64,000 bases of DNA from Omnitrophica bacterium GWA2_41_15 (GTDB taxonomy: Bacteria > Omnitrophota > Gorgyraeia > Gygaellales > Profunditerraquicolaceae). Each line of letters begins with the position of its first letter. Within the stretch, counting starts at the first letter, position 1. The notes beneath the pieces were generated by a model that was given only the letters and a program-made list of their open reading frames with translations, was not told the DNA's origin and searched no databases. The stretch covers positions 64,192-128,191 of the forward strand of contig CAKKQB010000013.1 of the NCBI GenBank assembly GCA_919901915.1, in the 5' to 3' direction. Below, in pieces: positions 14,690 through 14,736 of this stretch. The position numbers and the translations under genes were made by a program.

Positions 14690-14736
14690 CATTTATCCGT
14701 GTATATCCGTTCTTTTATCCGTGTTTATCCGTGTCC
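14690..14736. repeat. B-type array, four ATCCGT(GT) motifs, directly 3' of pilin copy 1
   Basis: catttatccgtgtatatccgttcttttatccgtgtttatccgtgtcc. Confidence 0.85.

Follow-up and report, generated by a model that had tools for sequence, protein, structure and literature searches.

The 64-kb stretch of a Candidatus Omnitrophota contig analysed here, referred to as the window, contains a type IV pilus locus whose intergenic DNA is punctuated by short arrays of a decamer repeat built on TATCCGTGT. These arrays are members of an intergenic repeat family that crosses phyla and for which we found no prior description, and arms of the same family enclose genes for GxxExxY (TIGR04256; Pfam PDDEXK_3), a predicted small nuclease. 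We consider it probable, at roughly 60%, that the window arrays are non-autonomous copies, in the form of solo arms or short palindromes, of this GxxExxY-linked interspersed DNA repeat family and that they act as dispersed homology.

Decamer arrays in the window and their relatives in other phyla

Exact copies of TATCCGTGT number 13 in the window against 0.16 expected from shuffled sequence (none of 100 shuffles reached 13), with 12 of the 13 on the + strand, and allowing up to one mismatch raises the count to 33 matches against 7.1 expected. Apart from one intragenic copy at 31822, the exact copies are confined to six of the 34 intergenic gaps of at least 25 nt, and five of these six gaps lie between 7992 and 15811. 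The preliminary description of this DNA had listed such arrays with a spacing of 10-14 nt, and all of its positions hold once the unit cores are located; the spacing is 10 nt inside pairs of units and 12-14 nt between pairs. An inverted pair that it placed at 57401-57438 is real and is in fact part of a complete 3+3 palindrome at 57387..57451, and inverted units, which it had missed, are present at the left side of most arrays, numbering from one to three. The units in the window read ATCCGTG, with the variants ATCCGTA, ATTCGTG, and CACAGAT, and because nearly all genes of the window lie on the - strand, the sense-strand reading of the unit is ACACGGAUAA.

The pattern TATCCGTGTNTATCCGTGT was scanned in one genome per species (596 Gb) and matched at least 119 genome stretches, against ~17 expected by chance according to our own calculation. 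Among the matches listed were Acidobacteriota, Verrucomicrobiota, Planctomycetota, Nitrospirota, Chloroflexota, and Bacteroidota, together with several classes of Proteobacteria and Spirochaetia, and the cultured isolates among them belonged to Arenimonas, Oleiharenicola, and Sedimenticola. Also among the matches listed, a third unit was present in 100 of 123 seeds and an inverted partner arm lay within 170 nt in 66 of 123. The CACGGAT arm nearly always comes first and the ATCCGTG arm second; spacers range from 9 to ~390 nt, and nearly all arm pairs are less than 150 nt apart. An autonomous transposon between distant arms was rejected given these short distances and the lack of any recurring transposase.

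The family unit has the core C(A/G)C-N-GAT, or ATC-N-G(T/C)G on the other strand, in units of 9-10 bp, and the consensus of 244 arms is TT-ATCCGTG-TTT-ATCCGTG-TTC-ATCCGTG-G-YTAA. Arms usually occur paired as a palindrome and typically hold three units each; solo arms are also common, and the full palindromic elements are imperfect and 70-150 bp long. Each arm ends in a distinct outer cap, which is GGAC, GAAC, or CCAC for the left arm and GTCC, GTTC, or GTGG for the right one (in the longer reading GTGTCC, GTGTTC, or GTGG); the flanks show only weak T-richness, 13-21 nt away. Sister arrays with the cores CACGAAT, CACTGAT, and CACAGAG occur in the same loci as the main core, and different core types coexist in single loci (L067, L091), with one array in L091 nested in the loop of another. 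The arms of the same element are 85.5% identical in register, compared to 78.3% between elements, a difference reached by none of 2000 permutations. The motif keeps a GC content of ~43% even in hosts above 60% GC, and core type shows a weak trend with host GC content.

The family is not specific to pilus genes, as the gene contexts of the arrays are by our reading unrelated across phyla (xth, rlmH, cinA, and hgd, for example), and viral contigs from IMG/VR carry arrays as well. One of these contigs (3300031885_000054; L216) holds ten solo arms (AATCCGTGTTAATCCGTGGTTAAAAT) at 2124-8534, all on one strand, which punctuate small genes as in the window, with gene orientation switching midway. Rfam searches at gathering score covered the window and 18 loci that contain full elements and gave nothing relevant, and at E values up to 1 no hit fell over the window arrays themselves. 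Published descriptions of the repeat strings were not found in the literature searched, the matches to the strings being primers only. A full element used as blastn query had no match among plasmids and phages, though the low-complexity filter may have masked it.

Association of the arms with GxxExxY genes

In three elements with long spacers (L117, L102, and L093) an open reading frame (ORF) of ~120 aa lies between the arms. Those of L117 and L102 are GxxExxY (TIGR04256, E 8e-39 and 4e-37; PF13366, PDDEXK_3) and that of L093 matches GxxExxY by tblastn (E 8e-35). We then drew an independent sample of 80 metagenome loci chosen solely by the GxxExxY protein, using profile alignment A2 for the locus search since A1 was too diverse, and scored 79 genes. 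By eye, nearly every one of these loci shows an arm upstream of the gene, for example ATAGAACACGGATGAACACGGAT or TGGGACACGGATGCACACGGAT, that is matched by an inverted arm past the stop codon. The flanking inverted repeats of 67 of the 79 genes scored above the 95th percentile of displaced control windows (median score 32 versus 16), and a strict test for periodic words was positive at 37 of 79 loci versus 2 of 92 controls. The period around the genes was 10 nt in 78 and 9 nt in 23 of 111 cases, the units included CACGGAT, CGCGGAT, CGCAGAT, CACAGAT, CGCTGAT, and others, and whole units of arms and gene measured 450-690 bp. The same arrangement of arm, gene, and arm is found in an AT-rich form on a cultured Fusobacteria plasmid. 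No other protein recurs next to the arrays, and in particular no transposase and no recombinase.

To connect the window with these loci we built a profile hidden Markov model (HMM) from 48 arms of the protein-seeded GxxExxY loci, independently of the window, and searched with nhmmer. The seven best hits in the window are the arrays, with E values from 2e-4 to 0.05, and all remaining hits have E values above 0.2. The arrays are listed below with their E values against this profile. Arrays at 8207, 13984, and 14687 share a common 48-nt layout with 67-85% identity, and the stops of pilMN (8256) and of the two pilin genes (14737, 15201) are each adjoined by an array. The inverted partner arm is complete in element F, small in arrays C, D, and E, and represented by a single inverted unit in A and B. 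Compared to shuffled sequence, DNA folding is significant for C, D, and F and not for A and B.

Array A, 8204..8254, + strand: an inverted CATGGAT (8204-8210), then four ATCCGTG units at 8213, 8223, 8237, and 8247; effectively a solo arm, 1 nt from the pilMN stop; profile E 0.002-0.003; no significant fold.
Array B, 13981..14046, + strand: CGCGGAT at 13981, degenerate units at 13990 and 14000, ATCCGTG at 14014, 14024, and 14036, ending in a GTGTCTC cap; flanked by the stop of mazF (14123) and the TPR-protein gene's start (13969); layout 85% identical to array A; profile E 0.0014; no significant fold.
Array C, 14670..14736, + strand: a degenerate left arm GGACACACCACGAACATACACAT (14670-14692) and a right arm of four units (14695, 14717, 14727, and a degenerate one at 14705) closed by a GTGTCC cap; flanked by the start of mazE (14634) and the stop of pilin copy 1 (14737); DNA fold -10.6 kcal/mol, z -3.1; profile E 0.0003 and 0.046.
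Array D, 15160..15200, + strand: a small 2+2 palindrome of GACACGGAT and GACATGAAT (15160-15178), TT, and two ATCCGTG units (15181, 15191), ending in GTGTCC; at the junction of pilin copies 1 and 2, 5 nt upstream of the Shine-Dalgarno sequence of copy 1; DNA fold -10.1 kcal/mol, z -5.3; profile E 0.0002.
Array E, 15622..15653, + strand: ACACAGAT (with an inverted CACAGAT at 15623), ATCCGTG at 15637, and a degenerate ATCTCTA, so that this site, given before as 15635, has a single good unit only; upstream of pilin copy 2; shown by alignment to be homologous to array D but diverged; DNA fold z -2.9.
Element F, 57387..57451, + strand: a complete 3+3 palindrome with a 2-nt loop, its left arm CACGAAT at 57387 and CACGGAT at 57401 and 57411, its right arm ATCCGTG at 57420, ATCCGTA at 57430, and ATTCGTG at 57445, the outer units CACGAAT and ATTCGTG being complementary variants; outside the pilus locus, with the gene of a LacI-family regulator on one side and an uncharacterised gene on the other; DNA fold -10.4 kcal/mol, z -3.6; profile E 0.02.

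The structure model of GxxExxY has a PD-(D/E)XK fold (pLDDT, the predicted local distance difference test, 92), and the protein is predicted to be a minimal nuclease of this type with its motif intact; in a 37-sequence alignment E76 and K78 of the D...ExK motif are invariant and D66 is conserved in at least 90%. No solved structure matched the protein by sequence, and the solved structures nearest to the model are Cas4 SSO0001, the archaeal Hjc Holliday-junction resolvases, and lambda exonuclease. Relatives at 59-71% identity are named from at least five phyla (Bacteroidota, Ignavibacteria, Calditrichota, Chloroflexota, and Acidobacteriota), in line with a horizontal spread of the gene. PDDEXK_3 has been surveyed as a family of unknown function with 'multiple transfers, mixed clades', between divisions (PMC3424549). 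The published mentions of GxxExxY, PDDEXK_3, or PF13366 that we found were in passing only, and a search for PDDEXK together with terminal inverted repeats gave nothing relevant; the family combines thousands of genes in public data with no known function and almost no literature.

GxxExxY genes are nearly always enclosed by inverted decamer arrays and gene-less arrays are scattered through many phyla, which suggests a nuclease-borne selfish element with non-autonomous derivatives. A full-length member consists of two inverted arms enclosing the nuclease gene of ~120 aa. The nuclease or another factor would recognise the arms and drive their spread, one possible route being cleavage of a hairpin or cruciform and subsequent copying, and the cutting of junctions or hairpins formed by palindromic arms would be an attractive mechanism for GxxExxY. 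Copies would have been inserted into the intergenic DNA of the pilus locus, where they would now serve mainly as dispersed homology. A more far-reaching proposal, which we offer tentatively and think somewhat improbable, is that the arrays are the cis-acting ends of mini-elements, for which we found no description, that cross phyla, encode only a PD-(D/E)XK nuclease of ~120 aa (GxxExxY), and spread by hairpin or cruciform cutting at the arms and copying in, with the gene-less derivatives acting as recombination hot spots that remodel surface-structure loci, as in the pilin duplication and toxin-antitoxin insertion seen here.

Several observations weigh against the preferred reading of the arrays as non-autonomous copies. 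A GxxExxY gene was near the arrays in only seven of the 119 motif-seeded loci listed and in none of 120 IMG/VR loci, so the arms could depend on some other factor. The window has no GxxExxY gene by tblastn over its 64 kb and none was called in the 8 kb beyond (~72 kb in total). With regard to mobility, the flanks show no target-site duplication apart from AT or TA, itself palindromic, and no pair of filled and empty sites was found. Five of the six array sites in the window fall within 8 kb at the pilus locus, which would not be expected under purely random scatter. Finally, the CACNGAT reading of solo arms falls in 162 of 220 cases (loci L001-L119 and L205-L324) on whichever strand is locally richer in G, a bias that the preferred reading leaves unexplained; taken as a per-locus majority, the same holds for 68 of 88 viral loci. 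The bias could reflect the replication strand, or base composition could confound it.

Among known systems, the closest parallels are REPs (repetitive extragenic palindromic sequences) and their hairpin-forming doublets (REPINs) with the REP-associated tyrosine transposase (RAYT). As there, the repeats are short and extragenic, the mobile unit is an inverted doublet able to form a long hairpin, gene-less copies far outnumber the protein gene, which is itself flanked by repeats, and there is possibly a strand bias. In contrast to REP/REPIN-RAYT, the recurrent neighbour here is a PD-(D/E)XK nuclease rather than an HUH (Y1) transposase, the arms consist of tandem 10-bp units with no GTAG head rather than a single GTAG-headed palindrome, and a nearly identical unit is found across phyla, unlike the species-specific REPs; the GxxExxY genes are themselves multi-copy. 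We therefore rejected membership in that system. MITEs (miniature transposable elements with inverted repeats) such as Correia elements are similar in their length of 70-250 bp, terminal inverted repeats, intergenic and non-coding nature, nested copies, and association with assembly breaks. They differ in that no parent insertion sequence (IS) with a DDE transposase and no clear target-site duplication was found here, the inverted repeats are internally periodic, and the only recurrent cargo is the 120-aa nuclease. An IS-derived MITE was rejected on the lack of a flanking direct repeat apart from the palindromic AT/TA and of any transposase recurring nearby.

Some further features of the GxxExxY loci were observed. 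Two related metagenome contigs (L129 and L131) share the position of a GxxExxY element, which apparently lies just upstream of a gene whose N-terminus we read as DNA polymerase I-like, with arm cores that have diverged together (CGCGGAT versus CACAGAT), indicating that the elements can be inherited in place for long periods. In L037 (1100-1700) and L082 (5650-6550) arms beside GxxExxY genes are part of larger tandem repeats of ~149 nt and ~184 nt, respectively, forming satellite-like blocks of whole palindromic elements. Arrays also create spurious or extended reading frames (L010 at 5304, L102 at 2306, L117 at ~195, and the window at 14715-14834), with N-termini reading MDTDKHG or MNTD and C-termini reading ...KDTDKHG, so gene callers can mis-start GxxExxY and neighbouring genes.

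Constraint on DNA and alternative roles of the arrays

Around GxxExxY genes, where it is known which strand is transcribed, mismatches between arms were compatible with G·U pairing in 126 cases on the sense and 114 on the antisense strand (p 0.48), and with these counts balanced there is no signature of an RNA stem in the arms. The fourth core position, which corresponds to the first G of GGA, varies freely and without compensation between arms, and 77 of 166 units around GxxExxY genes (46%) lack GGA, reading CGCAGAT, CACAGAT, CGCTGAT, and similar. No sense-strand bias of the arrays relative to flanking genes was seen, with 11 sense and 13 antisense in the low-GC loci where ORF calls are reliable, and the ten arms of L216 keep one strand across genes of both orientations. 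Taken together with arms that are specific to each element, these results place the constraint on DNA and make it specific to each element.

They also bear on the suggestion in the preliminary description that the arrays might be 3'-untranslated platforms for CsrA/RsmA. More broadly, the ACACGGAUAA repeats in a polycistronic pilin-mazEF transcript could act as such a platform or as processing or stabilising hairpins like the RNase III stems that flank 23S rRNA insertions. The likeness to the CsrA motif stands for the window, whose units, ACACGGAU(A/G)A, conform to (A/U)CANGGANG(U/A), the consensus of RsmE/CsrA, and are a good match to the high-affinity site; it fails for the family, in which the GGA core is not conserved. 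Every window array has the ACACGGAUAA reading on the sense strand, repeated as in CsrA sites and sponge RNAs, arrays C, D, and F fold significantly, and the strong promoter-like site upstream of pilin copy 2 together with the lack of a predicted terminator between the genes means that the arrays are probably transcribed. Against this, the family units without GGA, the uncompensated core position, the balanced mismatches and orientations, and the one-stranded arms of L216 all run counter to a role as RNA, as do the mostly self-complementary palindromes in both orientations, the absence of an Rfam match, and the lack of any csrA hit by tblastn in the window or any fetched locus. We judge action as RNA to be quite improbable and the CsrA platform in particular not to be sustained.

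Intervening sequences of 23S rRNA have a small ORF of a four-helix-bundle family between inverted repeats and are defined by RNase III excision from the rRNA. They resemble the elements described here in that a small, widely transferred gene lies between long inverted repeats inserted into conserved DNA, and differ from them in that the insertions here are intergenic and lack an RNA-stem signature. Genes of this four-helix-bundle type were not detected near arrays by tblastn with two queries, which is a weak test.

A second alternative is that a DNA-binding protein of the host recognises the arrays, touching the same face of the helix at 10-bp intervals, and regulates pilin, mazEF, and their neighbours, with GxxExxY genes merely tending to occupy such sites. 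Candidates would be a response regulator of the OmpR/PhoB or PilR type, an MraZ-like protein, or a nucleoid protein. The 10-bp period with two to four direct units fits binding to one face, the window arrays lie upstream of start codons, the pilus locus also encodes a response regulator and a PAS-PilZ histidine kinase, five of six sites cluster at this locus, and a motif GC content held at ~43% in GC-rich hosts points to constraint. A single host factor does not explain several core types in one locus, however, nor the co-variation of the arms of one element, and only GxxExxY recurs beside arrays whose neighbours elsewhere are unrelated. The arrays are moreover absent from three orthologous pilus loci of other Omnitrophota, and element F lies beside a LacI-family gene. 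Binding by a host protein thus appears unlikely to us, although less so than a role as RNA, and the earlier idea of DNA sites for a pilus regulator was not borne out. In annotation, an array should not be taken for a regulatory site of the gene next to it.

Three simpler candidates were also set aside. Some units create TTGACA, but by our reading no consistent -10 spacing follows, and the promoter scan placed no site inside the arrays. No intrinsic terminator or terminator-like site was predicted at any array. A DnaA box (TTATCCACA versus TTATCCGTG) was rejected because three positions differ and the units also occur in Xanthomonadales, which have canonical DnaA boxes.

Pilin duplication and mazEF at the pilus locus

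The preferred reading of the arrays as dispersed homology draws on the organisation of the pilus locus, in which the following genes lie between the arrays.

mazEF-like pair, 14123..14634, - strand: PemK toxin and DUF2281-like antitoxin, between the pilin and TPR-protein genes.
Pilin copy 1, 14737..15141, - strand: 134 aa, with an N-terminal methylation motif.
Pilin copy 2, 15201..15617, - strand: the same as copy 1 apart from the first codons.

As had been noted before, arrays bracket mazEF and both pilin copies, and the junction of the pilin duplication falls in an array: the segment 14712-15135 is 100% identical to 15176-15599, and this repeat starts inside array C and ends six codons into the gene. 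The window falls within a metagenome contig of 95 kb, its PilM-PilN protein has relatives named Candidatus Omnitrophota, and we compared three other Omnitrophota type IV pilus loci at 41-48% PilM identity. In all three the genes run PilB, PilC, small protein, a single pilin, TPR protein, minor pilins, and PilMN, and there is no mazEF, no second pilin, and no arrays, with only ~110-130 nt at the position of mazEF. All three features are therefore lineage-specific in the window, and the arrays coincide with the rearrangements. This agrees with the proposal in the preliminary description that the arrays are recombination substrates, since both the mazEF insertion and the pilin duplication are bounded by arrays.

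That the arrays caused these local rearrangements is what we infer from this coincidence. Recombination between inserted copies would have led to the tandem pilin duplication and to gene conversion, and the arrays would mark the borders of the mazEF insertion. The leaders of pilin copies 1 and 2 differ, a further point against the preferred reading, so the duplication was not a simple recent unequal crossover. Because the identical repeat begins in an array and the upstream arrays D and E are homologous but diverged, we read the tandem from its sequence as a probable old duplication of a unit of array plus pilin, followed by gene conversion. An independent Logan contig starts ~31 nt inside the pilin repeat, which would be the expected k-mer assembly break if the repeat is real, and the exact pilin protein had no record in the contig index. 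In practical terms, the arrays mark where the pilus locus of this organism has been rearranged.

The arrangement of small genes between arrays also recalls integrons, and the arrays might be recombination sites of an attC-like cassette system in which a site-specific recombinase captures small genes, mazEF and pilin among them. Small gene units of one orientation are flanked by arrays in the window, L216, L037, and L082, toxin-antitoxin pairs are typical integron cassettes, and the full elements are imperfect palindromes of a size similar to attC (70-150 bp). The ends, however, vary (GGTTAA, GGCTAA, GTCCCAT), with many finishing in GCTAA, GCCAA, or GTCCCAT in place of conserved GTTRRRY/RYYYAAC cores, and attC sites have no internal tandem 10-bp units. 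There is no integrase or other recombinase in the window region and none recurs near arrays, and the content between consecutive arrays is heterogeneous, mostly ordinary genes or nothing. Integron attC sites as such were rejected, and we regard a cassette system of this kind as very improbable, the least probable of the alternatives considered.

A near-consensus promoter of the sigma-70 type (TTGACT, 17 nt, TG-n-TATAAT) is present at 15787-15815 on the - strand, ~170 nt upstream of pilin copy 2, and no terminator was predicted between pilin copy 2 and mazEF, so pilin copy 2, pilin copy 1, and mazEF may form one transcript. The start of pilin copy 2 contains a run of nine C at 15607-15615 (G9 on the sense strand; ATGGGGGGGGGAGTGAAG) that has no counterpart in copy 1. 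Judged from the sequence, this run could be a slipped-strand phase switch, or it could make the true start codon ambiguous (ATG or GTG).

The window also contains a second interspersed repeat family, consisting of MITE-like palindromes of 120-180 nt at 8021-8201, 45608-45728, and 51988-52168. Its terminal inverted repeat, GGG(G/A)CTGTTGCGAAAT, has six matches at up to two mismatches against 0.08 expected. One copy directly adjoins array A, and the region 7990-8262 folds as DNA (z -4.8) and has no Rfam hit. A short-read assembly is broken by this second family, with one contig (L121) ending inside it.

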